Shown one piece after another: positions 4,149 to 31,020 of a DNA stretch of 37,723 bases. Source of the DNA: an uncultured Lachnospiraceae bacterium. Its GTDB lineage: Bacteria > Bacillota > Clostridia > Lachnospirales > Lachnospiraceae. How positions within the stretch are numbered: the stretch's first letter is position 1; every line of letters begins with the position of its first letter. The position numbers and the translations under genes are program-made. The stretch lies in assembly GCA_948665105.1 (NCBI GenBank), contig CAPNGW010000002.1, positions 1-37,723 on the forward strand, in the 5' to 3' direction. The notes below the pieces were generated by a model. It was not told the DNA's origin. It searched no databases and saw nothing but the letters and a program-made list of their open reading frames with translations.

Positions 4149-4904
4149 ATGTTTACAAAAGAGGATTGCTGCTATAGCAACTATCGAAGGATTCTTGGGG
4201 ATATCAAGGAGACAGGAGTATACTGTGACTATGCGGATGTGCTTTCTGAGAAACGGGAAAAATATCTTGTCTTGAGACATGATATAGAATTTTCCATTGA
4301 CAGAGCCTATGAATTGTCCAAAATTGAATCGGAGGAAGGGATTAAAAGCTCCTATTTTGTTCAGATAACGAACAATGCGTATAACGCTTTTTCCGAGAAA
4401 AATATCAGGATGATACGGGACATGAGCCGGAGGGGGCACCATATCGGCCTTCACTATCATCGCAGTGACGTGGAGGGGCTTGAGGCGTTAAAGGCAGAAA
4501 TAACATACCAGGGGGGGGTATTTTCTGCAATGACCGGTGTGCCTGTGGACCGGTTTTCCTTCCACAGGCCTCTTAGAGAGCATCTGGAGGCGGATATTGA
4601 GCTTCCGGGACTCATCAACACCTATGGTCATCAATTCTTTGTGCTGACGGATGACACGGACAAGCCACTGGAAGTGAAGTATATTGCGGACTCCAACCAT
4701 CAGTGGAAGTATGGGCTTGCCACAAAAGAATATTTCTCCCACTATAATAAAATTCAATTATTGATACACCCGCTGTCCTGGTCTCCGGATGGGGCAGAGC
4801 ACGTTGAGAATTTCCAGGCTATTGTGAAGGAAAAGCATGACGAGCTGGTGGAAACCATTGAAGGGGAATGGAAGATTTTTGATGAGCTTCGGGGGAAATT
4901 ATGA
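4149..4904 (+). CDS. Hypothetical protein, possibly a divergent polysaccharide deacetylase-like enzyme
   Basis: ATG 4149 lies 7 nt after the GGAGG RBS and just after the upstream stop; the tracked 4098 start lies inside the upstream gene. Motifs LVLRHDIEFS, HHIGLHYHR and FSFHRP loosely resemble metal-binding deacetylase blocks. The function is weakly supported. Confidence 0.55.
   Translation: MFTKEDCCYSNYRRILGDIKETGVYCDYADVLSEKREKYLVLRHDIEFSIDRAYELSKIESEEGIKSSYFVQITNNAYNAFSEKNIRMIRDMSRRGHHIGLHYHRSDVEGLEALKAEITYQGGVFSAMTGVPVDRFSFHRPLREHLEADIELPGLINTYGHQFFVLTDDTDKPLEVKYIADSNHQWKYGLATKEYFSHYNKIQLLIHPLSWSPDGAEHVENFQAIVKEKHDELVETIEGEWKIFDELRGKL
4511..4518 (+). repeat. Poly-G tract (G8), in frame within CDS 4149-4904
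   Basis: Directly counted: cag ggg ggg gta encodes Q-G-G-V. Confidence 0.95.
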
Positions 4905-5803
4905 TGAGAATAGAAGAAATTTTAAGATTTTTGGATGAGAGACAGATAGAATACTCCTTTCAGGGAGATGAGAGCGTTGAGGTGGAGGGATATTCATCTC
5001 TGAAGAACTATAAGAAGAATACCTTTACTTGGGCAAAGAATGAGAAAGCATATGAGTTTGGATTTCAGGGGAAGCTGTTGGTAATTGCCCAGGAGGGGCT
5101 TATGGTGGATGCTGAAAATGTGATTTATACAAGGGAGTCAAAGCTGGCCTTCTTTTCCCTGATAGAGTATGTGGCGATGCAGGCGTCAGGAGACAGTGAC
5201 TCCAAAGAGTGCGTTGGGACAGGTACGGTCATAGGGCCTGACGTGAAGCTTGGAAAGAATGTAAGAATCGGCGCCAACTGTGTGCTTCAGGGAAAGATTA
5301 CCGTGGGTGATAATACCAGAATCTGGCACAATGTGACAATTCTCAATCAAGTAAGCATTGGGAAGGACTGTGAGATACAATCCGGCTGTGTCATTGGCCA
5401 TGACGGCTTTGCCTGGAATGAAAATGAGGCACATGAGAAGACCATGATTAAGCATTTTGGCGGAATTGAGATAGAGGATGAGGTGTATATCGGACCCAAC
5501 TGTGTGATTGACAGAGGGGAGATTGACAATACCCTCATTGGTACCGGAGCTAAAATTGATGCCAACTGCTTTTTAGCTCACAATGTAATAGTTGGCAGGA
5601 ATGTGCTTCTGATTACAGGCTGTAAGCTGTATGGCTCCTCTGATATCGGAGATAATGCTTATATTGCATCTGCTACAGTGAGGAATCAGTGCAAGGTGGG
5701 AGCCGGCGCCTTTGTGGGAATCGGTTCTGTTGCCATTAAGGATGTGCCGGAGCACGTGGTTGTGACAGGTGTGCCGGCCAGAATCATGAAAAAAGGAGAA
5801 TGA
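4901..5803 (+). CDS. LpxD-like hexapeptide-repeat (left-handed beta-helix) N-acyltransferase
   Basis: LpxD-like N-terminal domain (MMRIEEILRFLDERQIEYSFQGDESVEVEGYSSL) followed by many [LIV]-G-x4 hexapeptide turns (IGANCVLQGKITVGDNTRIWHNVTI...). ATGA overlap with the upstream gene. Confidence 0.8.
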   Translation: MMRIEEILRFLDERQIEYSFQGDESVEVEGYSSLKNYKKNTFTWAKNEKAYEFGFQGKLLVIAQEGLMVDAENVIYTRESKLAFFSLIEYVAMQASGDSDSKECVGTGTVIGPDVKLGKNVRIGANCVLQGKITVGDNTRIWHNVTILNQVSIGKDCEIQSGCVIGHDGFAWNENEAHEKTMIKHFGGIEIEDEVYIGPNCVIDRGEIDNTLIGTGAKIDANCFLAHNVIVGRNVLLITGCKLYGSSDIGDNAYIASATVRNQCKVGAGAFVGIGSVAIKDVPEHVVVTGVPARIMKKGE

Positions 5804-5804
5804 T

Positions 5805-6779
5805 ATGTCATACAAGGAATTGAAATTTCCGGAAAAGTCCGTATTTTTAGTGACAGGAGGGGCAGGCTTTATCGGCTCCAATCTGTGTGAAGCCATTTTG
5901 GAGATGGGCTATCAGGTGAGATGTTTGGATAACATGTCCACAGGGAAGCAGGAGAATGTGGATTTGTTCCTGGAAAACCCAGACTACACGTTTATTAAGG
6001 GAGATATTACCAGCCTTGACACCTGTCTTGAGGCCTGCAAGGGAGTGGATTATGTTCTGAATCAGGCTGCCTGGGGAAGTGTGCCAAGAAGTATTGAAAT
6101 GCCCCTATTCTATGAAGAGGTGAACATCAGAGGAACACTGAATATGATGGAGGCAGCCAGACAAAACGGCATAAAGAAATTTGTCTATGCATCCAGCTCC
6201 TCCGTATATGGAGACCATCCGGTGCTGCCCAAAAGGGAAGGCCAGGAGGGAAATCTCCTCTCACCCTATGCCCTGACAAAGCGTGTGGATGAGGAATACG
6301 GGAAGTTATATTACAAATTATACGGACTGGATACCTATGGCCTTCGGTATTTTAATGTTTTCGGAAAGCGGCAGGACCCCAACGGGGCATATGCGGCTGT
6401 GATTCCCAAGTTTTTAAAAATGCTGATGAATGACGAGGCCCCCACCATCAACGGAGACGGAAAGCAGTCCAGGGATTTCACCTTTATTGAGAACGTGGTG
6501 GAGGCAAACCTTAAGGCCTGCCTGGCCTCCCATGAAGCAGGGGGACAGGCCTTCAATATCGCATACGGCGGACGGGAGTATCTCATTGACCTGTACGATA
6601 CCATGTGTAAGAAGCTGGGGAAGGAGATAGCGCCTGTATTTGGGCCTGACCGGGCAGGGGATATCAAGCACTCCAATGCAGATATTACCAAGGCCAGAGA
6701 GCTGTTAAACTATGACCCCCAGTACAATTTTGATAAGGGCCTGGATATGGCCATTGAGTGGTACAAGGAGAATTTATAG
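5805..6779 (+). CDS. SDR-family UDP-N-acetylhexosamine(uronate) 4-epimerase (TviC/WbpP-like)
   Basis: VTGGAGFIGSNL Rossmann motif, SPYALTK catalytic YxxxK, and LRYFNVFGKRQDPNGAYAAVIPKF...INGDGKQSRDFTFIENVV. It aligns closely with TviC/WbpP as I remember them. Confidence 0.85.
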   Translation: MSYKELKFPEKSVFLVTGGAGFIGSNLCEAILEMGYQVRCLDNMSTGKQENVDLFLENPDYTFIKGDITSLDTCLEACKGVDYVLNQAAWGSVPRSIEMPLFYEEVNIRGTLNMMEAARQNGIKKFVYASSSSVYGDHPVLPKREGQEGNLLSPYALTKRVDEEYGKLYYKLYGLDTYGLRYFNVFGKRQDPNGAYAAVIPKFLKMLMNDEAPTINGDGKQSRDFTFIENVVEANLKACLASHEAGGQAFNIAYGGREYLIDLYDTMCKKLGKEIAPVFGPDRAGDIKHSNADITKARELLNYDPQYNFDKGLDMAIEWYKENL

Positions 6780-6782
6780 CAG

Positions 6783-7961
6783 ATGCATATACTATATCTG
6801 GGATATTTTTGCAAGGAAGCGACCTTCAATGCGCTGGTGGAGCATGGCAGCAATGGCTCCCATGCCAGACAGCAGCTGGAAAAGAAGCTTTTGGACGGAC
6901 TTATCGAGGCCAGGGGTGGGGATACCATCGATATAATCTCTTATCTGCCAGAAATAGAAGAGGTACACAAAAGTGCGGGAGAAGGAGAGGTATACCAGGG
7001 ATTACAAATCACGTATCTGTGGTGTAAGAAAAATAAGATTGGCTCCGTGCTTTCCTCACTGAAAAAAAATATGCGGCTCATAAAAGCCTGGGCAAAGGGA
7101 AAGGAAGAAAAGGTGATACTGACCTATTCGGTGAATCCCCTCCATGTGATTCCTGCACTGCTGCTTCGCCGGAAATGCGGGTTTAAAGTGGTAACCCTGT
7201 GCTCGGAGGTGAGTGTGTACCGGAGAAAGGGGAGGTTCCACCTGGCGGGGCAAATCAGCAGGAAAATCTCCTCCTGTCTGGACAACAGCTTTGACGGATA
7301 CATCCTCCTTTCCAAATACATGAATGAAATCGTCAATCAAAGGAAGCAGCCTTACATGGTAATGGAAGGAGTCGCCCAGGAGTATCCCCGGACGGAGAAA
7401 ATGAAAAAGACCCTGGCCGTTATGTATGCAGGGGGCTTAACCCAGGACAATGGAATAGAGATTTTGCTGGAAGGCTTCTGTAAGCTGGCACATCCCAAGG
7501 CGGAGTTGTGGATTTGCGGGGACGGTCCCTTAAAGGAGTGTGTGGAAGGGTATGCACAGAAGCATGAAAACATACACTATTATGGGATTTGGCCAAACGA
7601 TGAGGTACAGAGGATGGAGCAGGAGGCCGCAGTGCTGATTGCGCCGAGATTTTCAAAGAACGATTTTACCAAATACTCCTTTCCTTCCAAAACCATTGAA
7701 TATATGACTTCGGGAACACCTGCAATCCTTACACGGCTCAAAGGGATACCGGAAGAATATTTTGATTATGCCTACATCCTGGAGGATGAGACGGCGGAGG
7801 GAATCTGCAACCTGCTTGGAGAGGTGCTTGCAGAAGACGGGAGGGTCAGAGAAGAGAAAGGCCAAAAGGCCAGGGCATTTGTATTGACACATAAGAATTA
7901 TCTGGAACAGAGCAAGAGGATTCTTGCGTTTTTGCGAAACATGGGAAGGAGCGGGAGCTAG
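6783..7961 (+). CDS. Glycosyltransferase (GT4/GT1-like, GT-B fold)
   Basis: 392-aa ORF. The C-terminal region [36 protein letters not shown] is typical of retaining GT-B enzymes. Confidence 0.75.
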
Positions 7962-7962
7962 A

Positions 7963-8493
7963 ATGATCCGAAAGCTGTTTGTGACAGTATATCATACAAT
8001 ATATGCCAGATTGAATCACGTAAAATATGTCAGGCATATTGGCGTGAATATAAAAGGGAAATTGTATATATATGGAAATCCCCTTCACATGTTCGGCACA
8101 GAGCCCTGGTGTATCACCCTGGGCGACAATGTTCACATTACCCAGGAGGTTCTTTTTGTTACCCATGACGGAGGCACCCTGCTGTTTCGGAACCGCCAGC
8201 CTGACTTGGAAATTACAAAGCCCATTGTGGTGGGAGATAATGTGTATATCGGTGTGCGGAGTATTATCATGCCGGGAGTTACCATTGGAAATGATGTAAT
8301 TGTAGCAGCGGGCTCGGTGGTCACCAAGGATGTCCCGGATCATTCGGTGGTGGGGGGGATACCGGCACGGGTGATTAAAACCAGTGACGAATATTTTGAA
8401 AAAATCAAAAAAGAGAGTCTCCACCTGGGCCATCTGAAAGGGAAAGAGAAGGATTTGGCATTACGTAAGTATTATGGATATCCTCTGAAGTGA
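7963..8493 (+). CDS. Hexapeptide-repeat O-acetyltransferase (WcaF/maltose acetyltransferase-like)
   Basis: ATG 7963 lies directly after the upstream stop; the tracked 7924 start overlaps the upstream gene. Hexapeptide turns [50 protein letters not shown]. It also contains a G7 run at 8352-8358. Confidence 0.85.
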
Positions 8494-8551
8494 TGAGAGG
8501 GACTTCTTGGGGGAATGGGAGAACAGTAGTGGAAGGATGAGGAATTAGCAA

Positions 8552-9820
8552 ATGAAAGTTATGTGGATTACAGGGATTTCTATTTCTGCCGATACATTTT
8601 GCGATGATTTAAAAGAGATGAATACGTCGGGCGGGTGGATTCATGCGACGCTTAAGGCCATGAAAAATAAGCCGGAGATAGATAAGCTTTCCATTGTGTC
8701 TGTACATCCTTCCCATACAGGTGAGAGAAAGGAACAGGGGAAGATTGTTTCCTATCAGCTTAAGGGAAGTGCATATGGCCTTTTCAAGCAGAGAGAATTG
8801 CTATATAATATAAAGAATGCTATTATTGCCGAAAAGCCGGATGTAATCGATGTACAGGGAATCGAGTTTGATTTTGCGGGAATGCTTTGTGAACAGAAGG
8901 ATATCCCCTGCCCGGTGGTTTATACCCTGCAGGGACTGGTATCCGAAATGGGCGAGGCCCTTAAGAGTGTGAAAGGCTCCCGGCGCCTTATGGTGAAGCG
9001 GAGCCTCTATGACAATCTGAGGCTGCACGGAGCCCTGGAGCACATGTGCGTACTCTCCATAAGAGGAAGACGCAGTGTCAGATTGTTAAAGAAAGCTGCA
9101 TATGTGACCGGCAGGACCGCCTGGGACAGGCAGGTGGCTCTTAACTATAACCCGAGGCTTCAGTATTTCTCTGTGAATCGAAATCTTCGCCCGGACTTTT
9201 ACGAAGCAGGCAGTTGGAGGATAGAAGGGGTTCAGAGGCATTCCATTTTTGTCCCCCAGGTTACAACCTTAGCGAAAGGTGGACATATCCTCCTTGATAT
9301 TATCAGCATTTTAATTGAGAAGTACCCAGACCTCCTTGTGTTCGCCCCGGGAGAGGCCATTGATCAAAAGCCCGGGAACCGTCAGAGTGGGTATGAAAAA
9401 TATTTGCTGAAGCAAATCAGAAACCGGAAGCTGCATAATAATATTCAATTTGTGGGAAGACTGGCATCGGGACAGATGGTGGAATATCTGACGAAATCCC
9501 ACGTATTTTTACAGACCTCCTTGCTGGAAAATTCCTCCAATGCCCTGGCGGAGGCCCAGATGACAGGCCTTCCCTGTGTGGCCAGCAACGTGGGAGGGAC
9601 CGCCTCTTACGTGGAGAACGGCGTTACCGGTATGCTGTATAATCCCAATGATGCCAGGGAAGCCGCAGAGGCCATCGGACAGATATTTGAGGATGATGAG
9701 ATGGCACGAAGGATTTCAAGGCAGGGACAGGAAGAGGCCCAAAGGCGGCACGACAGGAAGAGGAATCTAGAAGCATTGATACAGATGTATACAAAAATTA
9801 TTTCTGGAGGAAGAGAATGA
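8552..9820 (+). CDS. Glycosyltransferase family 4
   Basis: 422-aa ORF with the GT4 motif NSSNALAEAQMTGLPCVASNVGGTASYVENGVTGMLY. Confidence 0.85.
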   Translation: MKVMWITGISISADTFCDDLKEMNTSGGWIHATLKAMKNKPEIDKLSIVSVHPSHTGERKEQGKIVSYQLKGSAYGLFKQRELLYNIKNAIIAEKPDVIDVQGIEFDFAGMLCEQKDIPCPVVYTLQGLVSEMGEALKSVKGSRRLMVKRSLYDNLRLHGALEHMCVLSIRGRRSVRLLKKAAYVTGRTAWDRQVALNYNPRLQYFSVNRNLRPDFYEAGSWRIEGVQRHSIFVPQVTTLAKGGHILLDIISILIEKYPDLLVFAPGEAIDQKPGNRQSGYEKYLLKQIRNRKLHNNIQFVGRLASGQMVEYLTKSHVFLQTSLLENSSNALAEAQMTGLPCVASNVGGTASYVENGVTGMLYNPNDAREAAEAIGQIFEDDEMARRISRQGQEEAQRRHDRKRNLEALIQMYTKIISGGRE

Positions 9821-10965
9821 AGAGGGTTGGTATTGTCTCCTTTCATGTAGCGATTAATTACGGTGTCTATTTGCAAGCCTATGCCCTGCAGAGAAAGATA
9901 GAGGAACTGGGATATGAGCCTGAGATTCTGGATTACCGGAAACGGACAGATGAGACAGACGGCAGAATCAAAAGGGCCTTTCGAAGGATTGTGAAGGAGC
10001 ATATGTCCGTAAAAGAGATTGTAAAGGATGTAAGAGCCGTGCTTAGAGGGCGCAAAACCGCAAAGCTTCAGGAAATCAGCCACAGGAAAAAGGCATTTTT
10101 GGATTTTGCAGACAAGCATTTTAAGCTGTCACGGTTTTATGAAAATTATCAAAGCATATGCCAGGACCATGCAGAGTATGACGCCTGTGTATGCGGCAGT
10201 GATCAGATATGGAATCCTCTCTATACAAAGTGCAATCCCGTATATTTCTTAGAGTTTGTTCCTCCCGGGAGACGGATTGCCTATGCACCCAGTATTGCGG
10301 TTCAGAAAATCCCGGATGAATATACGAAAGCCCTGGAGTCTAAGATTGGGCAGTTTGCCGCTGTTTCCCTGCGGGAGCGGTCCGCCTCTGAGCTTTGGGC
10401 GGGGAAGCTAAAGCGCAGCGTTTATAATGTGGTAGACCCTACCTTACTGTATTCCGGGCGTGAGTGGAAGGAAATGGCAGTCATGCCAAAGGAAGAGCAT
10501 TATGTGCTGTGCTATTTTTTGGGCCATGATGAGGCATATTGGAAGCTGATAAGAAGGATTGAAGAGAAATACCACTTAAAAGCCGTGATTCTTCCCTTTG
10601 CCTATGAGGCTATTATGAAATATCCCGGGATAAAAGCGTATGCGTCCATAGAAGAATTTCTGGGGTACATATGTAATGCAGACTTTGTATTGACGGATTC
10701 CTTTCACGGAACGGCTTTTTCCGTTAATTTTAATCGGAACTTTTATGTTATGAAAAGGGCAGACAAGGGCGGGCAGATGCATTCCAGAATCCATGATTTT
10801 CTATCGAATATCGGCTTGGAGAGCAGAGAGCTTCAGGTGGAAGATGCCGGGAGCATAGCTTTAGAAACAATAGATTATGGTCCTGTAAATGTGAAATTAG
10901 ACAAGTGGATACAGGATTCTGTGAATTATTTGGATAACTCCTTGAAAAAGGTTGTGAAAGCGTAG
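9817..10965 (+). CDS. Polysaccharide pyruvyl transferase family protein
   Basis: N-terminus VGIVSFHVAINYGVYLQAYALQRKIEELGYEPEILDY and C-terminal LTDSFHGTAFSVNFNRNFY. Both are characteristic of the PS pyruvyl transferase family (CsaB/WcaK type). Confidence 0.8.
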   Translation: MKRVGIVSFHVAINYGVYLQAYALQRKIEELGYEPEILDYRKRTDETDGRIKRAFRRIVKEHMSVKEIVKDVRAVLRGRKTAKLQEISHRKKAFLDFADKHFKLSRFYENYQSICQDHAEYDACVCGSDQIWNPLYTKCNPVYFLEFVPPGRRIAYAPSIAVQKIPDEYTKALESKIGQFAAVSLRERSASELWAGKLKRSVYNVVDPTLLYSGREWKEMAVMPKEEHYVLCYFLGHDEAYWKLIRRIEEKYHLKAVILPFAYEAIMKYPGIKAYASIEEFLGYICNADFVLTDSFHGTAFSVNFNRNFYVMKRADKGGQMHSRIHDFLSNIGLESRELQVEDAGSIALETIDYGPVNVKLDKWIQDSVNYLDNSLKKVVKA

Positions 10966-10983
10966 CTTGGGACGAATGGATTA

Positions 10984-12234
10984 ATGATAAAAAATGTGTT
11001 TAAGAATGCCTATATAATTAATATGATGAATAAGGTTATGTCCCTGCTTCTGGGATTTATGGCCAGTGTTTTTGTTGCCAGATACATGGGGGCGTCCCTG
11101 AAAGGGGATTATGCATACATTGTAAGTGTGGCGGGCATTTTGAATATTGTTTTAAACTTAGGGATATATCATACGTATCCCAATCAGGTGAAAAAGGGCT
11201 TACAGAATGCAAAACAGAAATTCATAGATATCTATGTGTTACAATTTCTTCTTTATGAGGGATTGGCAGTACTGATTGGGCTGCTGGTTTCAGAGCCCCT
11301 TATTTTGCTTATCGGCATTCTTGCGCCGGTCATGACCCTGGCATCACAGATTACAATGATAGGAATGGTTGACTTTCCCATATACAGAAGCATCTCCTTA
11401 ATCGGGGTGGCCGCTTTTAATCTGGCTGCCTATATGGGTCTGTTTTTTTTCTTTCCCAAAAGTATATGGCTGTCTGTCCTGGTCCTGATTCTCAAGGATA
11501 TGCTGTTTGTCTGCCTCATTTTAGGTAAATTGAAAATCATGCCCCACCCCTTCCGTGCGGAGAAGGGGCTGATGAAAGAGGCCATAAGATTCGGTATGTT
11601 TCCCATGCTTACCGCTTTACTGTTAAACCTGAATTATAAAATGGACATTATCATGATTCGCACCTTTGGCACATCTGCCTGGGTTGGAATATATTCTGTG
11701 GCAGTCACAATCGCAGATTATTTGTGGCTGATTCCGGACGCCTTCAAGGAAGTACTGTTTTCAAAATCCATCCAGAAGAAGGCCACGGACGCTTTTAATG
11801 CTTCTATAAAAATATCTGTTATGCTTACCACCATGGCCAGCGGCGTTTTGCTGGTGTTTGGGTATTGGTTCATTCCGGTGTTTTATGGAAAAGGGTTCGA
11901 AGACGTTTATTCTATTATGATTATCCTGTTGATTGGAATTCCGTTTATGTCGATTTTTAAAATTTTAAACCCCCTGTATATTACTCAGGGAGATACGAAG
12001 TCATATTTTATTAATCTTCTATGTGGAATCATCTGCAATATGATTTTAAATATTATTTTGATTCCCAGAATGGGGATGACAGGAGCGGCAATCGCCACCG
12101 TTACGTCTCAGGTTGTATGTGGAATTTATGCCATTACAAGATATATAAAGAAAAATAAGGTACCAATGAAAGATATTTTTACCATTACTTCCAGGGAAAA
12201 AGAAATGATAAAGGGGTTTATACGAAAATCATGA
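10984..12234 (+). CDS. wzx: Wzx-type polysaccharide flippase (MOP superfamily)
   Basis: 416 aa with about 12 predicted hydrophobic helices, a typical Wzx size, and a position next to the polymerase. There is no diagnostic motif beyond topology. Confidence 0.75.
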   Translation: MIKNVFKNAYIINMMNKVMSLLLGFMASVFVARYMGASLKGDYAYIVSVAGILNIVLNLGIYHTYPNQVKKGLQNAKQKFIDIYVLQFLLYEGLAVLIGLLVSEPLILLIGILAPVMTLASQITMIGMVDFPIYRSISLIGVAAFNLAAYMGLFFFFPKSIWLSVLVLILKDMLFVCLILGKLKIMPHPFRAEKGLMKEAIRFGMFPMLTALLLNLNYKMDIIMIRTFGTSAWVGIYSVAVTIADYLWLIPDAFKEVLFSKSIQKKATDAFNASIKISVMLTTMASGVLLVFGYWFIPVFYGKGFEDVYSIMIILLIGIPFMSIFKILNPLYITQGDTKSYFINLLCGIICNMILNIILIPRMGMTGAAIATVTSQVVCGIYAITRYIKKNKVPMKDIFTITSREKEMIKGFIRKS

Positions 12235-13550
12235 CAGAAATGCGAGTGAGATGGAATGAGAATAGCAGGATAATGCTGGCCTTGAGTGGCGCCATTGTCC
12301 TGGCCGGGCTTTCGGAGCGGTTCCATACTGGATATTTTGAGTATATCAGTATCCTGATAGTTGTAGTATTACTGCTAAATAAAAGTCAGAAATATTTTAT
12401 TTATGCCATTGTTTTTCTCATGGCCGGCGGGGATTTGATGACGCTGTCCGGTGCTGGGATTCCTACCATACTGGCGGTTGTCTCTGTGCTGAAGGAAATT
12501 TTCTGGTATCGGAGGCCTGCAAACAGGAGATTCTTGATTAGCTGTCTGGCCGTTCTTTTGTATAGTGTGATATTTCTCCTCCAAGGGGACTTGTATGCCT
12601 TTGCGATGCTTGCAAAGGTGGTTGTCTTATTATATTGTATGATTGCAGGCATCTGTGATGCAGAGGACTTGACGGCTCATGTCAAATTGATGGTGGGCTA
12701 TTTGGTGGTGGGAACCAGTGTTACAGCGGTAAGCGCATTGGTGATTCACCCATATTTTTTGAGTGGTATGAGATGGGCGATTTCAGAGAACACAGGAGTC
12801 AACTTAACAGCGGTTGTTCTGGGCCTGGTGTTTACTGTCTGCTTGATTTGGTTTGTGAAGGAAAAGAATGCAGTGACACTGTATGCAGGAGCCATTGTGG
12901 CAGTGCTTGGCGTACTCCTGACAGGCAGCCGGGCGGGAATATTACTGGTCGGAGTTGCCGTTGCCTGGACGATGCTGTATGTGCTGGCCTTCGGAAGCGT
13001 AAAGCTCAAGAAATATTTTCTGACCATAGCGGTAGCCGCGCTCGTCGGTCTGGTGCTGTTTATCATTTTAAATCCTGGTGTAAGAGAAACGTTGCTGTAT
13101 ATGGTGAAGAAGATAGTGTCACCCAAGGAAGGGGATATTTCCAACGGGAGATTTATATTGTGGGAGAATTATATCAATACATGGACTAAGGATACCTTCT
13201 GGATATTCTGGGGGGCGGGAACATACACAAATATGGGATTCGAAAGCATGGCCCACAATATGATTATAGAGCAGCTCACCCAGCTGGGGATTATCGGTAA
13301 TATCCTCGTCATAAATTTATACGTTAGCGTCTATGCAGCAATAAAAAAGAATTGGAATAAAAAGATGCAGCGAATGTCATATTCCTTTACACCGGCGATA
13401 TTGCTGATTAATATTTTTGTGGCGGGAATGACGGGGCATAGCTTTTTAAGTATCATTAACACAACCGTTTTCTGGTTAGGAGTGCTTCTGATGTTTGCTT
13501 TTCCTTATTGGGAACCCGGGGAAAGGCGAATCAGGCGCTACGCCTGGTAG
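12231..13550 (+). CDS. wzy: Wzy-type repeat-unit polymerase / O-antigen ligase-like membrane protein
   Basis: 439 aa and polytopic. It has an LLTGSRAGILLVG segment and a large loop, typical of the O-antigen ligase/Wzy_C family. ATGA overlap with wzx. Confidence 0.7.
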   Translation: MTEMRVRWNENSRIMLALSGAIVLAGLSERFHTGYFEYISILIVVVLLLNKSQKYFIYAIVFLMAGGDLMTLSGAGIPTILAVVSVLKEIFWYRRPANRRFLISCLAVLLYSVIFLLQGDLYAFAMLAKVVVLLYCMIAGICDAEDLTAHVKLMVGYLVVGTSVTAVSALVIHPYFLSGMRWAISENTGVNLTAVVLGLVFTVCLIWFVKEKNAVTLYAGAIVAVLGVLLTGSRAGILLVGVAVAWTMLYVLAFGSVKLKKYFLTIAVAALVGLVLFIILNPGVRETLLYMVKKIVSPKEGDISNGRFILWENYINTWTKDTFWIFWGAGTYTNMGFESMAHNMIIEQLTQLGIIGNILVINLYVSVYAAIKKNWNKKMQRMSYSFTPAILLINIFVAGMTGHSFLSIINTTVFWLGVLLMFAFPYWEPGERRIRRYAW

Positions 13551-13569
13551 AGCATCGTTAGGAGGAAAA

Positions 13570-14763: not shown

Positions 14764-14764
14764 A

Positions 14765-16194: not shown

Positions 16195-16209
16195 TTCAGG
16201 GGGTGTGAT

Positions 16210-23360: not shown

Positions 23361-23382
23361 TGAGGAATAGGGGAGAAGAAAA

Positions 23383-24894
23383 ATGCAGATATCAATTTTA
23401 GATTATTTGGAAAATTCTGCAAGCCGCTTTCCGGAAAAAATTGTATTTTCGGAGGAAAAGAAACAGATTTCCTATGGCCAATTAGAAAAAACGGCAAAAG
23501 CAGTGGGAAGCAGTATTATAAAAACGGCACAGGGGGTATACAAGCGGCCAATCGTAGTGTTCCTTGACAAGGGAATCGATGTGCTGATTTCCTTTATGGG
23601 CATCGTTTACAGTGGAAATTTCTATACCCCCATAGATGTTCATATGCCGGTTTCCAGAATAAATAAGATTTTAGAGACTCTGCAGCCGGAAATGATGATT
23701 ACGGATGAGGAGCATCTTCACCTCGTAAAAGAAACGGCGTTTGCCAAACACGTATTACTGTTTCAGGAGGCGGCGCAGGCAGAGATATTGACAGAGCAGC
23801 TTGAAAATATCAGGGAGAGAATGACAGATACGGATTTGCTGTACGTACTGTTTACATCGGGCTCCACAGGAACACCCAAGGGGGTTACAATCTGCCACAA
23901 GTCAGTGATTGACTATACGGATTATATCACAGATAAATTTGATATTACTGAAAAGGAAATTTTTGGAAATCAGGCACCTTTTTATTTTGACAATTCCATT
24001 TTAGATATTTATTGCACCTTAAAGGCCGGGGCAACCATGCATATCATTCCAAAGGAGCTGTTTGGACAGCCGGTACTGCTTTTGGAATATTTAAAGAACC
24101 AGCGGATAAATATTATTTTCTGGGTTCCTTCCGCCCTTATCATGGTCTCCAAATTAAAGGCTTTTCGGAATGTAGATATCTCGGAAACTTTGCGTAAGGT
24201 ACTGTTCTGTGGAGAGGTAATGCCAAATAAGCAGTTGAATATATGGCGAAAATATTTGCCGCATGTATTGTATGCCAATTTGTATGGCCCCACCGAGATT
24301 ACAGACGCATGTACCTGTTATGTGGTAGACCGGAAATTTGAGGACAATGAGCCTTTGCCCATTGGCACTCCCATGGGAAATACCGGGATTCTTGTGCTGA
24401 ATGAGGGGGATGAGCTGGTGAAGGGTGACGAGATTGGCGAGCTCTGCGTAAGGGGGACCTGCCTGTCTCCTGGCTATTATAATAATCCCGAAAAAACCAG
24501 GGAGGCGTTCATACAAAACCCCTTGAATAAAGCTTATCTGGAATGGATTTATCGAACAGGAGATCTGGTGCGGTATAACGAGTACGGGGAACTGATTTAT
24601 CTGTCCAGAAAGGATTTCCAGATTAAGCATATGGGGCACCGAATCGAACTGGGAGAAATTGAGAATGCTGTTTCCTCCATGGAGGGGATGTCCTCCTGCT
24701 GCTGCTTGTATGATGAAAAGAGAAGCAAGATTGTTCTCTTTATAGAAGAGGATTTAGAGAAGGAAACCATTATAAATGGTATTAAGAATCTGGTGCCGGA
24801 CTATATGTACCCGGGTAAGGTGATTAAGCTGGATAAGCTGCCGATGAATGCCAATGGAAAAACAGACAGGGTAGCATTGAAACAATACTTATAG
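23383..24894 (+). CDS. DltA-like amino-acid adenylating enzyme (carrier-protein ligase), module 1
   Basis: Adenylation cores LFTSGSTGTPKGV, NQAPFYFDNSILDIY, FCGEVMP, LYGPTEITD, YRTGDLVRY..GELIYLSRKDFQIKHMGHRIELGEIE and NANGKTDR. It is collinear with B. subtilis DltA as I recall it. Confidence 0.85.
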   Translation: MQISILDYLENSASRFPEKIVFSEEKKQISYGQLEKTAKAVGSSIIKTAQGVYKRPIVVFLDKGIDVLISFMGIVYSGNFYTPIDVHMPVSRINKILETLQPEMMITDEEHLHLVKETAFAKHVLLFQEAAQAEILTEQLENIRERMTDTDLLYVLFTSGSTGTPKGVTICHKSVIDYTDYITDKFDITEKEIFGNQAPFYFDNSILDIYCTLKAGATMHIIPKELFGQPVLLLEYLKNQRINIIFWVPSALIMVSKLKAFRNVDISETLRKVLFCGEVMPNKQLNIWRKYLPHVLYANLYGPTEITDACTCYVVDRKFEDNEPLPIGTPMGNTGILVLNEGDELVKGDEIGELCVRGTCLSPGYYNNPEKTREAFIQNPLNKAYLEWIYRTGDLVRYNEYGELIYLSRKDFQIKHMGHRIELGEIENAVSSMEGMSSCCCLYDEKRSKIVLFIEEDLEKETIINGIKNLVPDYMYPGKVIKLDKLPMNANGKTDRVALKQYL

Positions 24895-24920
24895 ATATCA
24901 GGTAAGAAAGGCAGAAAAAA

Positions 24921-25154
24921 ATGGAAGAAAGAATTTTGGAAATTTTAGGAGAGGTGAATGAAGAAATCCTCTCATACGAGGGAGACCGGCTCACCAAGGA
25001 CAGTATTATAGATTCTTTTGAAATTATCAATATTGTTTCAGAGCTGGAGGAGGAATTTGATATTGAAATTGATGCGAAATATGTCGTTCATGAAAACTTT
25101 GAGAACAAGGACACAATTATCGCACTGGTAAAGAGGCTGGTGGAAGAGCAGTAG
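24921..25154 (+). CDS. DltC-like acyl/aminoacyl carrier protein, module 1
   Basis: 77 aa and acidic, with the phosphopantetheine-attachment context SIIDSFEIINIV (compare DltC LLDSFGTVELL). It lies between the adenylating enzyme and the MBOAT. Confidence 0.8.
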   Translation: MEERILEILGEVNEEILSYEGDRLTKDSIIDSFEIINIVSELEEEFDIEIDAKYVVHENFENKDTIIALVKRLVEEQ

Positions 25155-25167
25155 ATGAGGTTTCAAA

Positions 25168-26727
25168 ATGCAGTTTGCGTCTGTTGAATTTGGGATATTC
25201 TTTTTGCTGGTTTTAGGAATATATTATCTGGTTAATCAAAGACGAAGATGGATGGTATTGCTGGCTGCCAGTATGGTGTTCTGTGGACATTCTTCCCCAT
25301 GGCATTTCATTTACTTGATGATAGCAATCAGTGTCAGCTTTTTTGCCGCTAAAATCATTGAGAAGCTCCATGAGGATGAGGCGAGAGAGCTTTTTCATAA
25401 GAAGGATATCAGCAGGGAGGAAAAAAAGAAGCTTAAGAATCACTTTAAGAAGAAAAAGCAATGGGTCATAGGGGTCCTGCTTTTCCTTTTGCTGACAGTT
25501 ATTCTCGCACTCAAGCTGGCAAAAAAGCTTTCTCTCATTCAGGAAGGCGCATTGGGCATCCTGATTCCTTTGGGAATTTCTTATTATACATTGGTCATGA
25601 TTGGCTATTGCATAGATGTTTACAGGGAAAAATATCCGGCAGATTCCAATTTTTTTAAGTTCACACTTACAATTATGTATTTTCCCTCATTGCTCCAGGG
25701 ACCAATCAACCGCGTGGATGCGTTAAGGGAGCAATTATTTCAGGAGATACACTGGAATTATTTTGAGGTAAAAGCCGGATTGCAGAGAGCGGTCTGGGGA
25801 TTGTTTAAAAAGCTGGTGATTGCAGACAGGCTGGCAATTTTTGTGAATCAGATTTACGGTGATTTTGGTAATCAGGCAGGAAGCTTTTTGGCAGTCGGAA
25901 CCATTGCATATGCAATTCAGTTGTATGCAGATTTCTCTGGATACATGGATATCGCCATTGGCATCAGCAGAACCTTTGGCGTAAAGCTGGCAGAGAATTT
26001 TAAATGTCCGTACTTTTCTGTTTCAATCAGTGAATTTTGGAAAAAATGGCATATAACCTTGGGCGACTGGTTCAAGGATTACCTGATGTTTCCCTTTGCA
26101 ATGTCTCAGACAGGAAGAAACATAGGGAAGCAAGGACAGAGGATATTTGGAAAGCAGGGAGGCAAAAAGCTTACACTATACCTTGCAACTATGCTGGTGT
26201 GGTTTTCCACCGGCTTATGGCATGGGATTGAGTGGAACTTTATTACCTGGGGGGGGGTATACGGCGTAATAATGGTACTCTCTGATTTTCTGGACCCCCT
26301 TTTTGAAAAGATAAGGAATCGGTGGGGAATCACTAAGGAAAAACGTTGGTTTCGATTTTTTTGCTATATCAGAACCTTTTCCATCGTGTGCTTGGCGGAC
26401 ATTCTGTTCCGGGCGCCAGGATTGAGAGAGGCAGTTATAATCATAAAAAAGATTTTATTTGAATTCCAGGTAAGTGCAATAGAAAACACTGAAATTTGGC
26501 TTTTACAGCTTACAGAGCAGGACTATGTGGTTTTGGTGATATGTTTGATTGCCGGGCTTTTGGTGCATATACTGCATCAAAAGAGAAAAAGCGTTTCGGT
26601 CATATTAGAGCAAAGAAATGTAGTGACCAGATGGATGGTTTATTTCGGGATTACCTGGATTATCATTTTGTTTGGGATATATGGAAGCGGGTATTCGTTG
26701 GAAGGCTTTGCTTATATGCAGTTTTAG
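25168..26727 (+). CDS. MBOAT #2 (DltB/AlgI-like), intact
   Basis: 519 aa and polytopic, with YADFSGYMDIAIG, FWKKWHITLGDWFKDYLMFPF, GLWHGIEW and the C-terminal ...GFAYMQF-stop. It contains an in-frame G9 tract. Confidence 0.9.
   Translation: MQFASVEFGIFFLLVLGIYYLVNQRRRWMVLLAASMVFCGHSSPWHFIYLMIAISVSFFAAKIIEKLHEDEARELFHKKDISREEKKKLKNHFKKKKQWVIGVLLFLLLTVILALKLAKKLSLIQEGALGILIPLGISYYTLVMIGYCIDVYREKYPADSNFFKFTLTIMYFPSLLQGPINRVDALREQLFQEIHWNYFEVKAGLQRAVWGLFKKLVIADRLAIFVNQIYGDFGNQAGSFLAVGTIAYAIQLYADFSGYMDIAIGISRTFGVKLAENFKCPYFSVSISEFWKKWHITLGDWFKDYLMFPFAMSQTGRNIGKQGQRIFGKQGGKKLTLYLATMLVWFSTGLWHGIEWNFITWGGVYGVIMVLSDFLDPLFEKIRNRWGITKEKRWFRFFCYIRTFSIVCLADILFRAPGLREAVIIIKKILFEFQVSAIENTEIWLLQLTEQDYVVLVICLIAGLLVHILHQKRKSVSVILEQRNVVTRWMVYFGITWIIILFGIYGSGYSLEGFAYMQF
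26249..26257 (+). repeat. Poly-G tract (G9), in frame within MBOAT #2
   Basis: Directly counted: tgg ggg ggg gta encodes W-G-G-V. Confidence 0.95.
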
Positions 26728-26743
26728 GTGAATAGGATATCAA

Positions 26744-27535
26744 ATGATGATAAGGATAGAAAACGGCGAGGAATTTTATTCAATATTAAAAGCGTTTAAG
26801 AAGAAGAACAGGAGAATAATATCTAATTTTTTGATGTTTCCGGAAGAGCTTGAAAAGCTGATGAGAGAAAAGAAAGTTTTTTACATGGAGGGGGAGGCAG
26901 GGATTAGCCTTTTTGTGGAGTATGAAGCACACTTTTCTTTTTACTTTTTCTACAAAGGATTGGATGTACCCATAGAAGTAAGAAGATTGGATAAGCCGGT
27001 TGCCTGCGAGATATTTACGAAGAATCAGTTGGAAGAAGGGATAGATGAGAGATTTATAAAAGAAAATTTTCGACAAATAGGTATTTATAAAAGATATATC
27101 TTAAAAAGTGAAAATATTCATGATGTAAAAAGTGGGAACTCCGTTAGGAAAAAAGCAGGAGCAATACATGAAGTCTGGGATGGCATAAAAGAAAACTTTA
27201 ATGTGTTGACGGACCATCTGGTATCTCAGGATGAAATGGAAGAGAAATATGCGGATAAACAATTTTTTTATTATAATCAGGCAAATAGAATAGAAGGTGC
27301 GTTGATTCATGAAACGAAAAATAAAAAATCTGTATTGGAATATATCTTTGTATATCCGGAATTTCGAAAAAAAGGTGTTGCCAGGGAATTGCTGGAAACC
27401 TGGCTTGCCACTTATTTTCAAGCAATAAATAAATTTGAATTATGGGTAAGTACAGAAAATAGGGAGGCTATAGAATTGTACAAAAGATATGGATTCCAGG
27501 AGGATGGCCTTATAAAATATGTTTATTTGATATAA
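26744..27535 (+). CDS. GNAT-family N-acetyltransferase with an uncharacterised N-terminal domain
   Basis: C-terminal GNAT motif A, IFVYPEFRKKGVARELLETWL, followed by AIELYKRYGFQEDG. The gene is very AT-rich. Confidence 0.7.
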   Translation: MMIRIENGEEFYSILKAFKKKNRRIISNFLMFPEELEKLMREKKVFYMEGEAGISLFVEYEAHFSFYFFYKGLDVPIEVRRLDKPVACEIFTKNQLEEGIDERFIKENFRQIGIYKRYILKSENIHDVKSGNSVRKKAGAIHEVWDGIKENFNVLTDHLVSQDEMEEKYADKQFFYYNQANRIEGALIHETKNKKSVLEYIFVYPEFRKKGVARELLETWLATYFQAINKFELWVSTENREAIELYKRYGFQEDGLIKYVYLI

Positions 27536-27603
27536 TTTTTTAGTATAGAGCCAGGTTTATAGTGAGAGCAGGAATAAAGCAGAATGAAAGGTAAAGAGGA
27601 ACG

Positions 27604-29418
27604 ATGGGGCTTTTGATATTATTGGTATTTTTGCTGGCAGTGCCTGGGGTAATTGGAATGGCGGGTGAGAAAATACTAATTAACAGACGAAGAATTAGCA
27701 TGGCCGAGAGTTATCTATGGGGAAACATTATTCTCTGGGCGCTTTTTCAGATACTGTGTGTGCCCATGGCTATGCTTGGAATGAGCTTTAGCATTTTTTC
27801 CGTGATATTTCTGATAATTATCATTGCTTTGACCATGCTTGCTTTGATTAAATACGGCCAGTATATGATTCTGAAAGTGGTTATGCTGAAAGAAGAAATA
27901 AGGAGATTTGGCTGGAAGGAAATCCTGCTGATTACTATAATCGCAGCGCAGATTCTTATATTGGTGTTTGGGGTAACTTATGAATCAAGTGCAGATGATG
28001 CTTCTTATATAGCACTGTCTCTGGACACACTTTCTACAGACCGCATAGCACAGCTGGATCCATATACAGGGCTTGAGGGAGCCATATCGTTAAAACGTAT
28101 ATTGACCTCCTGGAATTTTTATCTCTCATTTTTAGGAAAAATTTCAGGTATTCATGTGGCTGCCATAGCACATACAATTCTGCCAATACTACTTGTACCT
28201 ATGGCGTATATGGCATATCTTTTAATAGGTAGGGCGATTTTCGGAAAGAACAGGAAAAGGACGGTTCAGTTTTTGCTATGGCTGAGCCTGCTGTTTACCT
28301 TCGGCGCTTATTCTATCTATACGGTAACATATCGCCTGACGATTGTGGTCTGGCAGGGAAAAGCTGTGATGGTAACCATTATATTGCCGTTTTTATTTTG
28401 TTTTTTAATCAAAATGAAAGAGATAAAATTAAAGAAAACGGTATGCCTGTTCCTGATTATGGCGTCGGCCTGTGCCATGAGCCTGATGGGCGTTGGACTT
28501 TCTGTTTTTATGGTTATTGTTTCAGCAGTTGCCAAGCTAAAAAGGCATAAAGTAAAGACAGTGGTACCTTTACTGCTGACAGGCATATTGATTTCCATGG
28601 TGGCATTTTACTATATGTGGATGAGAGGGGAAGGGATTTTGTTTTCCCCTAAGTATATTCAGAAGCTGTTCCCCCAGGCTGTGACTATGATAAGAGAGGC
28701 GTTTTCTCTTTACTGGAATGGGACTAAAATACAATGGCTGTATCTTGGTGGATTTTTGATTATATGTTGGCGGGGAAGAAAAAAAAGGAATGTACGATTT
28801 CTCATAAAGTATGCACTGGTTAGTTACATAATTATTTGGAATCCGGTATTTTATTACTTTGCCTTTGTATTTTTAAAAAATGCAAGCACAGGGGTACGGC
28901 TGATTTATACAATGTTTCCAGAGGTGTATATGGCTCTGGCTATGACATTTTTGACTTGCGCATTTCGGGACAGGAAGGGGAGTATGATTGCAGGAGGGGT
29001 TGGTGGCTTGTATATTTTGCTGACAGGGACCATATATCCTAAGGTGGGACATCCTGTGCTTGCAGAGAATACTTATAAGCTGCCCAATGAAGCTGTTCAA
29101 GTGTGCCAGATTCTAAATGAAGATTCAGAAGAACCACCCCTTGTGATGGCAGATGGCGGATTGGTTCTGTATCTGCGCCAATATAGCAGCCGCGTGAAAA
29201 TGGTATATGGCAGATATGGTTATATATATCAGGGAGAACAAATTTTTCAATTAATAAATGAACAGCGGATAACCAAAGAAGAAATATGGACATTTCTGGA
29301 AGAAAATAACTGTGATTATGTGGTATGGAGAAAAAATGATGCAGATATAGAGGCGTTCATACAACTGGGGGGAGAGCTGATTGAAGAAACACAGAATTAT
29401 GCTATCATAAAAAGATAA
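27604..29418 (+). CDS. Uncharacterised polytopic membrane protein (more than 10 TM) with a C-terminal soluble domain; possibly GT-C-like
   Basis: 604-aa ORF with many hydrophobic helices and an acidic loop motif, YESSADDASY, after the early TMs. The soluble tail of about 130 aa starts near residue 470. No family is confidently recognised. Confidence 0.65.
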   Translation: MGLLILLVFLLAVPGVIGMAGEKILINRRRISMAESYLWGNIILWALFQILCVPMAMLGMSFSIFSVIFLIIIIALTMLALIKYGQYMILKVVMLKEEIRRFGWKEILLITIIAAQILILVFGVTYESSADDASYIALSLDTLSTDRIAQLDPYTGLEGAISLKRILTSWNFYLSFLGKISGIHVAAIAHTILPILLVPMAYMAYLLIGRAIFGKNRKRTVQFLLWLSLLFTFGAYSIYTVTYRLTIVVWQGKAVMVTIILPFLFCFLIKMKEIKLKKTVCLFLIMASACAMSLMGVGLSVFMVIVSAVAKLKRHKVKTVVPLLLTGILISMVAFYYMWMRGEGILFSPKYIQKLFPQAVTMIREAFSLYWNGTKIQWLYLGGFLIICWRGRKKRNVRFLIKYALVSYIIIWNPVFYYFAFVFLKNASTGVRLIYTMFPEVYMALAMTFLTCAFRDRKGSMIAGGVGGLYILLTGTIYPKVGHPVLAENTYKLPNEAVQVCQILNEDSEEPPLVMADGGLVLYLRQYSSRVKMVYGRYGYIYQGEQIFQLINEQRITKEEIWTFLEENNCDYVVWRKNDADIEAFIQLGGELIEETQNYAIIKR

Positions 29419-29443
29419 TTTTATGCAGCGGAGGATACCAAAG

Positions 29444-31020
29444 ATGTCTTACACATCATTACTTTTCTTTATATTTGTTATTGCACTGATTTTTGTCTAC
29501 TATATAGTGCCAAAGAGCTGGCAGTGGAAGGTACTGCTCATTGCAAATATCATATTCTATGCCTCCAATGGCGTAATACCACTTGTTTTCATAACAGCAA
29601 CCACTCTTTTGACATGGTTTGCAGCACTTTTATTGGAAAAGAAGGACCTCTGCCAGAGCAGGGAGCTGGAAGGGGAACCCCTTTCAAGGGAAGAGAAAAA
29701 CCAAATCAAGGTAGCGTATAAGAGACAGAAAAAAGGAATTCTCATACCTGTGCTCTTAATGGTATTTGGACTTCTTGCATATGCCAAATATACAAATTTT
29801 GGTATTGGTATTATTAATGGTATTGCAGGAGTGGACATGATACAAGTACAAAGTATCATCGTCCCCCTGGGAATCTCTTTTTACACTTTTATGTCCGTAG
29901 GATATATCCTGGATATCTACTGGAAAAAATATCCTGCGGAGCATAATTTCTTTAAGTATGCAACATTTACAACGTTTTTCCCCCATGTGGTACAAGGCCC
30001 CATTGGGCGCTATAATAAGCTGGCTCCGGAATTTTTCAAAGGAAGGCATTATGATTTTCGTCAAATGGTGTCTGGCTTTGAGTTATTTTTATGGGGACTT
30101 TTCCAAAAGCTAGTAATTGCTGACCGTCTCGGTATTTTTGTTGATAACGTTTTTGCAGACTACCAAAATACCGGGGGGGGGTATTTCTATTAACGCTGGC
30201 GTTTTATTCCATTCAAACGTATGCTGATTTCTCCGGCTGTATGGATATCTGCCGGGGGATTTCTGAGATTCTTGGAATCCATCTTGAGAAGAACTTCAAT
30301 CATCCGTATTTTGCAAAAACCATACCGGAGTTCTGGCAGAGATGGCATATCTCTATGGGAGCATGGTTTAAGGATTACCTGTTTCTACCCATTTCCAATT
30401 CATCCTTTGTAAAAAAATCAAGTAAAAAATTAGGAGTGAAATATGGCTCCGGTGTCAGAAAAAAATTTGCGGCGAGCTTTCCTGTTGCCATTGTCTGGCT
30501 GGCCACCGGTGTCTGGCATGGCGCCGGATGGACCTTTATTTTCTGGGGATTGTTCCATGGGTGCCTGACAATCGGAGGTACGGTTTTTTCTGAAAGAATC
30601 TCCAGGCTCACATCCGTATTACATATTCCAACAAAAGCATTTTGGTGGAAATTATTTCAGATGTCCAGAACCTTTTTCCTGTGCTGTATAGGAAGAATTT
30701 TCTTTCGGGCTCCGGATTTGCAGGTGGCGGGGCATATTATAAAGAAAATAACCACAGATTTGCAATATCAATCACTGTTTAGTGGACACATATTTCAATT
30801 CGGTTTGGGCAGAGAGAATATGATGATAGCCTTGGCCTCCATTGGTATTTTATGGAGCGTCAGCATGCTGCAGGAAAGATGCTCTATTCGGGAAAAGGTG
30901 GCGAAGCAGAATATTGTAATGCGGTACGCATTGCTTTACATCGCGATTTTTTCTATTTTGATTTTAGGTATCTATGGGCCAGGTTATGATACATCAACTT
31001 TTATTTACAATGCATTTTAA
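29444..31020 (+). pseudogene. MBOAT #3 (DltB/AlgI-like), frameshifted at a G9 tract (phase-OFF allele or homopolymer error)
   Basis: ORFs 29423-30193 and 30241-31020 are two halves of one MBOAT. The likely start is ATG 29444 (MSYTSLLFF) after a GGAGGA RBS. The downstream frame is open from 30181 (VFLLTLAFYSIQTYADFSGCMDICRG). Later motifs are FWQRWHISMGAWFKDYLFLP and GVWHGAGW. One extra G joins the two frames. Confidence 0.85.
30173..30181 (+). repeat. Poly-G tract (G9) at the MBOAT #3 frameshift site
   Basis: Directly counted. As sequenced it reads acc ggg ggg ggg tat ttc tat taa, which terminates. Confidence 0.95.

Follow-up and report, generated by a model that had tools for sequence, protein, structure and literature searches.

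Poly-G tracts in decoration genes of a surface-polysaccharide locus from an uncultured Lachnospiraceae bacterium as probable slipped-strand contingency loci

We analysed a stretch of 37,723 bp (hereafter the window), which is the complete NCBI contig CAPNGW010000002.1 of assembly GCA_948665105.1 from an uncultured Lachnospiraceae bacterium. Scans with Pfam and NCBIfam placed a Wzx/Wzy-type surface-polysaccharide gene cluster (capsule or exopolysaccharide) on its forward strand at 345..32718, with genes for a priming sugar transferase, GT4 glycosyltransferases, UDP-glucose dehydrogenase, epimerases, a pyruvyl transferase, a flippase and a Wzy polymerase. The cluster also encodes FnlA/B/C-like enzymes, a hexapeptide acetyltransferase, a protein joining Fer4 and FrhB-like parts and three acylation modules based on proteins of the MBOAT family (MBOAT1 to MBOAT3). 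Five runs of eight to ten G and one run of seven G lie in this cluster, and the genes that carry them serve decoration and not backbone assembly, namely the three MBOATs, a CE4-like protein, the hexapeptide acetyltransferase and the FrhB-like redox protein.

All tracts lie within genes on the forward strand, are made of coding-strand G and translate into Gly-Gly or Gly-Gly-Gly, and the five runs of eight to ten have a length sufficient for instability, which in G or C runs sets in at about 7-8. Tract T1 is a G8 (4511-4518) at about codons 121-124 of the CE4-like gene 4149-4904, which encodes 251 amino acids (aa), and T0 is the G7 (8352-8358) in the gene for the hexapeptide acetyltransferase (7963-8493; 176 aa), near codon 131. 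T2 is a G10 (13752-13761) at about codons 61-65 of the gene for the Fer4 and FrhB/FdhB-like protein (13570-14763). The three MBOAT genes each carry a G9: T3 (14968-14976) in MBOAT1 (14765-16194), T4 (26249-26257) in the DltB-like MBOAT2 (25168-26727) and T5 (30173-30181) in the DltB-like MBOAT3 (29444-31020). An earlier sequence-only reading of this DNA had reported the coordinates and lengths of these tracts, all of which were exact on recount, and had put the MBOAT tracts near codons 70, 360 and 245, where we found them at approximately codon 69 of 476, 361 of 519 and 244 of 525. It had also noticed neither a comparable C run nor an intergenic tract and indeed no run of six or more C occurs anywhere in the window, which has a GC content of 44.4% with 9981 G versus 6755 C on the forward strand and every sizeable open reading frame (ORF) on that strand.

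In the window T1, T2 and T4 are in frame and their genes are full length (ON). A feature overlooked by the sequence-only reading is that T3 (14968) and T5 (30173) are out of frame and fall precisely on frameshifts, which leaves MBOAT1 and MBOAT3 split (OFF). The upstream frames stop 7-10 nt past the tract, the last residues being ...EGGGKH and ...TGGGYFY, and MBOAT1 is thereby represented by 14765-14986 (73 aa) and 15025-16194 (389 aa), and MBOAT3 by 29444-30193 (249 aa) and 30241-31020 (259 aa). Addition of a single G in silico yielded a 476-aa ORF at T3 and a 525-aa ORF at T5, neither with further stops, which are 99.8% and 99.0% identical to P0031 and P0039, respectively, two full-length proteins present in other public assemblies.

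The expectation of the sequence-only reading that chance would give fewer than one run of nine or more G was borne out under three null models, against four such runs observed. Independent bases gave 0.18 runs (Poisson probability of four or more, 3e-5), a codon shuffle in which synonymous codons were permuted with all proteins kept gave a mean of 0.23 (0 of 2000 shuffles reached the observed number) and a first-order Markov (dinucleotide) model gave a mean of 0.60 (probability of four or more, 0.002). For runs of at least eight, the codon shuffle gave a mean of 0.71 versus five observed (p ~0.0005). As an outside control, MBOAT-containing loci of 80 other genomes, 1.33 Mb in total, held just 2 G or C runs of eight or more, and there were none in approximately 10 kb of non-capsule flank and none in 21.7 kb from a relative. 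In usage, GGG ranks second among the glycine codons (235 of 858) and GGG-GGG is the top codon pair for Gly-Gly (10 of 56); furthermore, GGG is over-used exactly at the Gly-Gly sites of the tracts when compared with the synonymous shuffle. The enrichment of G runs is real, yet it depends on the null model, and composition by itself is insufficient for the case.

Decisive evidence came from the comparison of independent assemblies. We retrieved the same locus by exact-protein look-ups from the NCBI metagenome-assembled genome (MAG) GCA_948634295.1, from one ENA assembly and, for many independent runs, from Logan assemblies (the retrieved loci are denoted by L numbers). Runs with the locus are ERR7159397, ERR7159439, ERR7159440, ERR7159406, ERR7130463, ERR7130475, SRR29305887, SRR30634799, SRR30634800, SRR29547560, SRR29547609, SRR29547618, SRR29547640 and SRR29547642. 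The comparison of tract lengths across related assemblies, which the sequence-only reading had proposed, revealed that T1, T3, T4 and T5 vary, as does the site of T0. T1, a G8 and ON in the window, is a G9 in L011 and L012, a G10 in L013 and a G7 in L112-115, and at each of these other lengths the gene is split; gene calls of 142 and 124 aa were seen in place of 251 aa. T3, OFF as a G9 in the window, is a G11 in L003 (OFF) and a G13 in L007 (ON), while divergent alleles have either a G9 with shifted flank (L116 and L117; ON, 476 aa) or a G8 (L118; ON, 475 aa). At T4 the G9 is ON (519 aa) and the G8 of L017, L109 and L110 leaves products of 366 and 151 aa. T5 is OFF as a G9, ON as a G10 in L017 (525 aa), and a G12 in L023. 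The site of T0 is a G7 in 6/6 close assemblies, a G9 in L003 (176 aa, ON) and a G10 in L116 (138 aa, OFF); the G7 is a short and stable form of this site, at which a divergent allele has the longer tract. Each observed length agrees with the predicted full-length or split gene call; tract length and reading frame are coupled.

The tracts are also hypermutable in nature. When assemblies with an identity of 99.5% or more were compared all versus all, the 711 kb of alignment from 129 pairs contained 30 gap events, all of them changes in G-tract length except for one intergenic A run and one AT duplication. Many pairs had no single-nucleotide polymorphisms (SNPs) over 4-14 kb and differed at a tract alone (window/L012, window/L013, L105/L110, L106/L111, L113/L114 and L003/L007), and A8 or T8 runs showed no length differences among clonal pairs. 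In addition, other strains have further variable tracts, one in a fourth MBOAT gene, which is ON with a G10 (578 aa) and OFF with a G9 (172 aa), and one in a 243-aa gene (G8, G9 or G10), so that the capsule pan-locus of the species comprises at least 8 tract sites, 7 of which were seen varying. The combination of states differs between samples: in the MAG GCA_948634295.1 T1 is OFF and the remainder is as in the window, in SRR29305887 T4 is OFF and T5 is ON, and in SRR30634800 T3 is ON. These differing combinations fit independent switching.

Truncation was specific to the tract-bearing genes, as judged from counts of full-length and truncated forms per contig in protein clusters at 90% identity. 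There were 11 full-length versus 10 truncated contigs for MBOAT1, 3 versus 3 for MBOAT2 and approximately 20 with the 525-aa form versus approximately 24 with a split gene for MBOAT3, and for the T1 gene 2 contigs had the 251-aa form versus approximately 49 with pieces. The 11 tract-free control genes of the same locus had 87 cluster members, essentially all full length, the exceptions being two members of 398/416 aa on contigs below 2 kb and one fragment of 55 aa.

The ends of assembled contigs pointed to the same sites. Inside the window 17 of 39 contig ends fell within 45 nt of the five tracts, a zone that makes up 1.3% of the sequence (binomial 4e-22), and none of the 39 fell near the three A8 or T8 runs, which are located at 7062, 11443 and 28779. 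Five contigs start at T3, three ends lie at T4 and five at T5, and one Logan contig ends 8 nt before T2. Assemblies built from k-mers break where two continuations coexist, and the breaks thus suggest mixtures of tract lengths within one sample; since errors in sequencing poly-G could contribute to them, we treat the breaks as suggestive only. Two other assembly features were traced to different causes. An apparent 30-nt insertion in MBOAT3 of the MAG was rejected as a scaffold gap of 10 N (L018 7025-7034), and the same MAG is also broken inside ORF 21888-23360 (window 22531-22712), a draft-assembly artefact. Moreover, several independent contigs, the window included, begin no more than approximately 300 nt ahead of the gene that opens the locus (window ~-136 to 139; L012, L122-L125, ERR7159397_1021). 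An invertible promoter was considered at this position and rejected, as a terminator hairpin was found there with no convincing inverted repeats, and the upstream break zone is probably the edge between the conserved flank and the strain-variable locus.

The tracts have been retained over long divergence. At T3 and T5, the poly-G occupies the same sites in L116-L118, where the flanks are 85-92% identical and have changed in such a way that another length (G8 or G9) keeps the frame. This resetting of the ON length implies persistence of the tract in a gene that remained functional. The FrhB alleles of L116 and L118 lack the 9-nt insertion in which T2 lies, and where T1 encodes Gly-Gly, a 76%-identical ortholog from another organism has Ala-Glu; the T1 protein therefore does not require Gly-Gly. 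The sequence-only reading had argued from the non-homologous positions of the MBOAT tracts for independent selection, an argument that holds and is strengthened both by the conservation of each tract at its own site across diverged alleles and by the absence of the T1 Gly-Gly from the ortholog.

The locus as a whole is mosaic between strains in a serotype-like manner (L105-L118 versus window 4900-29400). One conserved end holds the T1 gene and the genes for the priming transferase and UDP-glucose dehydrogenase, the other those for MBOAT3, its carrier, the AMP-ligase and an ABC (ATP-binding cassette) transporter, and the variable centre includes WbqC, GFO_IDH_MocA, a DegT aminotransferase, the fourth MBOAT and a two-gene DUF6077. 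The seemingly split DUF6077 of L105 and L108-110 was dismissed as a frameshift, being a divergent two-gene version of 22-25% identity. G tracts were also seen in more distant loci. The related organism of L119 (ERZ16268121 scaffold_38), whose T1-gene ortholog is the 76%-identical one without the tract, has a G9 at 6339-6347 in a PglD-like acetyltransferase of its own capsule locus, which adjoins genes for choline-binding-repeat proteins. A distant metagenome locus, L133 (OFHA01002578.1), with an MBOAT 36% identical, has two G9 runs, one (3141-3149) in frame in a methyltransferase-like ORF (2545-3372) and one (4832-4840) at codons 21-23 of an ORF (4770-5696) that precedes the MBOAT by two genes. 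According to L133, other organisms may use the same tract strategy.

We consider it very probable that the five G8-G10 runs and the G7 site are simple-sequence contingency loci that switch decoration genes by slipped-strand mispairing. Mispairing during replication would add or remove one G in a tract and thereby shift the frame between a full-length enzyme and truncated fragments. Each tract would toggle one decoration enzyme independently of the others, and therefore one clone would yield sub-lineages with different combinations of decorations. By the predicted chemistry, the decorations would be O-acyl groups from MBOAT1 and aminoacyl or acyl esters from the two Dlt-like modules, the T1 product would act as a deacetylase, and phage, antibody or a host lectin might be the selective agent.

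Several observations weigh against this interpretation. The claim of the sequence-only reading that each decoration switches independently finds support at T1, T3, T4 and T5, whose lengths toggle the frame, but not at the FrhB-like step, since T2 was a G10 in 5/5 covering assemblies and the members of its cluster were all full length. Almost every assembly has T1 in the OFF state, and one strain has it as a short G7, which could be decay instead of switching. Under the Markov model, runs of at least eight had a mean of 2.0 and the probability of five or more was 0.056, a marginal excess. The breaks of contigs at tracts could partly be Illumina poly-G error. Switching would be frequent and reversible within a culture, of which the contig ends at the tracts and in-frame lengths several steps away, such as the G13 at T3, are indirect signs, and the predicted enzyme functions rest on family similarity with several scores under curated cut-offs.

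Of the explanations that compete with contingency switching, one-way decay is unlikely: the tracts would then be mutational hot spots that inactivate dispensable genes of a host-restricted bacterium. It would account for a T1 gene split in approximately 49 of 51 contigs and down to G7 in one strain, and inactivation away from tracts exists too, as by the Wzy AT duplication of another strain described below. Decaying genes would nevertheless be expected neither to keep their OFF alleles free of secondary lesions, with 259-389 codons open downstream, nor to present ON and OFF forms that are both common, as for the three MBOATs, nor to reach an in-frame length by several steps, such as the G13 at T3. 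Tracts kept at the same sites despite 8-15% divergence of their flanks, with an ON length re-set by those flanks, likewise argue against decay, as does the over-use of GGG at exactly these Gly-Gly sites. Sequencing or assembly errors in homopolymers as the source of both the length differences and the two frameshifts are decidedly improbable. Homopolymers are error-prone, erroneous k-mers would create branches and hence the Logan contig breaks at tracts, and the MAG is of draft quality with its N gap; yet different runs and pipelines (NCBI contig, MAG and Logan) agree on the OFF lengths of T3 and T5, and the consensus differences between samples are reproducible and amount to up to 2-4 nt (G9/G11/G13). 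Random error would not have spared the A8 and T8 runs, which had neither length differences in clonal pairs nor contig breaks, nor would it leave the G7 and the G10 of T2 perfectly stable across assemblies.

We give hardly any credence to the clustering of G runs being a by-product of composition in proteins that need Gly-Gly-Gly and a genome that favours GGG. The rank of GGG among glycine codons, the top position of GGG-GGG among Gly-Gly pairs and the runs of at least eight produced by the Markov model all lend themselves to it, whereas the codon shuffle, which keeps every protein, falls far short of the four runs of nine or more. A need for glycine is also difficult to reconcile with a T1 Gly-Gly that is not conserved in a close ortholog and with a T2 that lies in an insertion missing from other alleles, and it leaves the length polymorphism and the toggling of frame unexplained. 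Programmed slippage during transcription or translation at the out-of-frame tracts could tune dosage and supply some full-length enzyme from OFF genes. Homopolymers of nine or more can provoke slippage of RNA polymerase, and two genes are intact downstream of an out-of-frame G9; productive transcriptional slippage is, however, documented mainly for A or T runs, and neither a stimulatory structure nor a shifty heptamer was seen, with no search aimed at them made. As the length varies at the DNA level among clonal assemblies and in-frame alleles exist, which suffices for the genes to be intact, slippage in expression is not needed, and we regard it as very improbable. The slipped-strand contingency reading thus remains the one that we prefer.

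Two of the three MBOATs, MBOAT2 and MBOAT3, adjoin their own adenylating enzyme and small carrier. Upstream of MBOAT2, on the forward strand, are a DltA-like adenylation enzyme (23383-24894; TIGR01733 with 346 bits versus a cut-off of 317) and a 77-aa carrier protein (24921-25154; weak PP-binding match) that would feed MBOAT2. MBOAT3 is followed on the same strand by a 72-aa carrier (31036-31254; likewise a weak PP-binding match, E = 6e-6) and an AMP-binding enzyme (31264-32718; AMP-binding E = 8e-47). DltA models matched the protein of 23383-24894 with E = 1e-98 to 1e-101, the equivalog scoring 329 bits and thus below its cut-off of 560. The DltB equivalog TIGR04091 gave 144-162 bits (E = 1e-42 to 1e-47) on the three MBOATs, and since this is under the cut-off of 375 we class them as DltB-like and not as DltB. 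PF03062 (MBOAT) was above its gathering score for the C-terminal part of MBOAT1 (102.7 bits) and for MBOAT2 (52.4 bits); the C-terminal half of MBOAT3 alone reached 26.4 versus a cut-off of 27, and the full-length ON allele is called MBOAT. No DltD was matched in the protein family scans of the window, where DUF6077 and unassigned proteins occupy its place. A search of genome contigs gave nothing nearer to MBOAT1 than 49% identity, and the species was found neither in the GTDB representative set nor in the JGI contig collection. The T1 gene belongs to a widespread family of approximately 250 aa with weak similarity to CE4/NodB deacetylases: the window protein had no Pfam match, 2 of 20 family members matched PF01522 (2e-5) and the family profile matched the chitin deacetylase 2iw0 weakly (E = 0.009). 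A scan of the window with Rfam gave no RNA family at the gathering score.

Variation away from the G tracts was observed as well. An A7 run (24915-24921) separates the ribosome-binding region from the ATG of the DltC-like carrier gene (TAAGAAAGGCAGAAAAAAATG) and has one A fewer in L017, a strain differing by 24-39 SNPs over the compared stretches; this change may alter the spacing between ribosome-binding site and start of the carrier gene. Among the places listed, L112 (SRR29547618) has at ~8800, within the Wzy gene 8171-9492, a 2-nt AT duplication (TTAATAAAG to TTAATATAAAG) that splits the Wzy polymerase into 213 and 170 aa, L112 being otherwise identical to L113 and L114. It is a non-tract, capsule-inactivating mutation that segregates within one study. 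Downstream of the cluster, an operon (32958-37276) encodes a solute-binding protein, an ABC ATPase, a double permease and a nucleotidyltransferase (cytidylyltransferase-like) fused to a helix-turn-helix domain. In a 71%-identical relative this operon adjoins teichoic-acid-type genes (Glyphos_transf and an LtaS-like sulfatase), and its products may take up and activate a substituent destined for wall glycans. A 71%-identical relative has the spore genes CotH and CotJA/B beside the transporter operon, and named homologs of the flanking permease, at 62-65% identity, are from Acutalibacteraceae, Oscillospiraceae, 'Clostridia bacterium' and Holdemania. The nearest named relatives are Clostridia and Erysipelotrichia, and placement as a Clostridia-like Firmicute is plausible from these homologs.

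The mechanism itself is already known from other bacteria; the lineage and the target genes, the DltB-like MBOAT modules, are new. In Streptococcus pneumoniae, serotypes 15B and 15C are switched by a (TA)n repeat in the capsule O-acetyltransferase gene wciZ. This is likewise a capsule O-acylation gene of a Gram-positive bacterium switched by repeat length, with a single dinucleotide repeat in one AT3-type gene there and at least five poly-G runs in MBOAT and other genes of one locus here. A close likeness in tract type is offered by the poly-G contingency loci of Campylobacter jejuni in its capsule, lipooligosaccharide (LOS) and flagellar-glycosylation clusters, e.g. the O-methyl phosphoramidate (MeOPN) and O-methyl transferases (PMC8355987; PMC3417588). 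These too are intragenic G8-G11 runs in surface-polysaccharide decoration genes, toggling the frame by single bases and forming many independent switches with combinatorial variants, with conserved tracts whose lengths differ between strains and, in C. jejuni, also within strains. In contrast to this epsilonproteobacterial pathogen, in which the absence of mismatch repair underlies high switching rates, the host here is an uncultured Firmicute-type bacterium with a leading-strand excess of G, and the tracts affect a CE4-like and an FrhB-like protein as well as DltB-like MBOATs that are partnered by adenylation and carrier proteins. The phase variation of LOS or capsule in Neisseria and Haemophilus, through homopolymeric or tetranucleotide repeats in lgtA/C/G, lic1 and siaD (PMC5084427), shares the slipped-strand mispairing in coding repeats of glycan-modifying genes and the multi-locus 'phasome' logic, but differs in phylum, in glycan (LOS there, a Wzy-type polysaccharide here) and in enzymes, and rates and phenotypes were measured there.

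Among gut commensals, Bifidobacterium breve has an intragenic G-tract switch of its pilus that turns ON and OFF by replication slippage, is reversible and was selected in vivo (PMC9187656); it concerns pilus genes of a high-GC actinobacterium, in contrast to the several switches that are clustered here within a single polysaccharide locus. Capsule loci of Bacteroides and Akkermansia are controlled by invertible promoters (PMC13343947; Jiang et al. 2019, as cited in PMC13343947). Their outcome, stochastic capsule heterogeneity of gut commensals, would be similar, whereas site-specific recombination of promoters turns whole loci on or off and the frameshifts described here affect single decoration genes. 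The sequence-only reading was aware of no precedent in Clostridia, and our literature search likewise turned up no poly-G capsule phase variation in this class. According to a 2025 review, genomes with phase variation at multiple loci appear restricted to pathogens (PMC11868660).

The locus provides a clear case of multiple switches in an uncultured Firmicute known just from metagenome assemblies. As the switching is detectable in public data from full versus split protein lengths across assemblies, this offers a cheap general recipe for finding simple-sequence repeat (SSR) switches in metagenomes, and 'frameshifted pseudogenes' and contig breaks in such MAGs would be signal and not noise. The bacterium is probably a commensal. 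With at least 8 tract sites in the capsule pan-locus and the G9 runs of L119 and L133, multi-locus poly-G phasomes might even be a strategy shared across a lineage of Clostridia-like gut Firmicutes that are uncultured and probably commensal, a tentative proposal that we hold to be somewhat doubtful. If true, each clone would make dozens of differently acylated or aminoacylated capsule types, phasomes in Gram-positive gut bacteria would take the role of the Bacteroides invertons, and the impression of multi-locus SSR phase variation as confined to pathogens would be contradicted. Dlt-like capsule decoration in gut Gram-positives may vary within a strain, which would bear on susceptibility to phage and on immune recognition.

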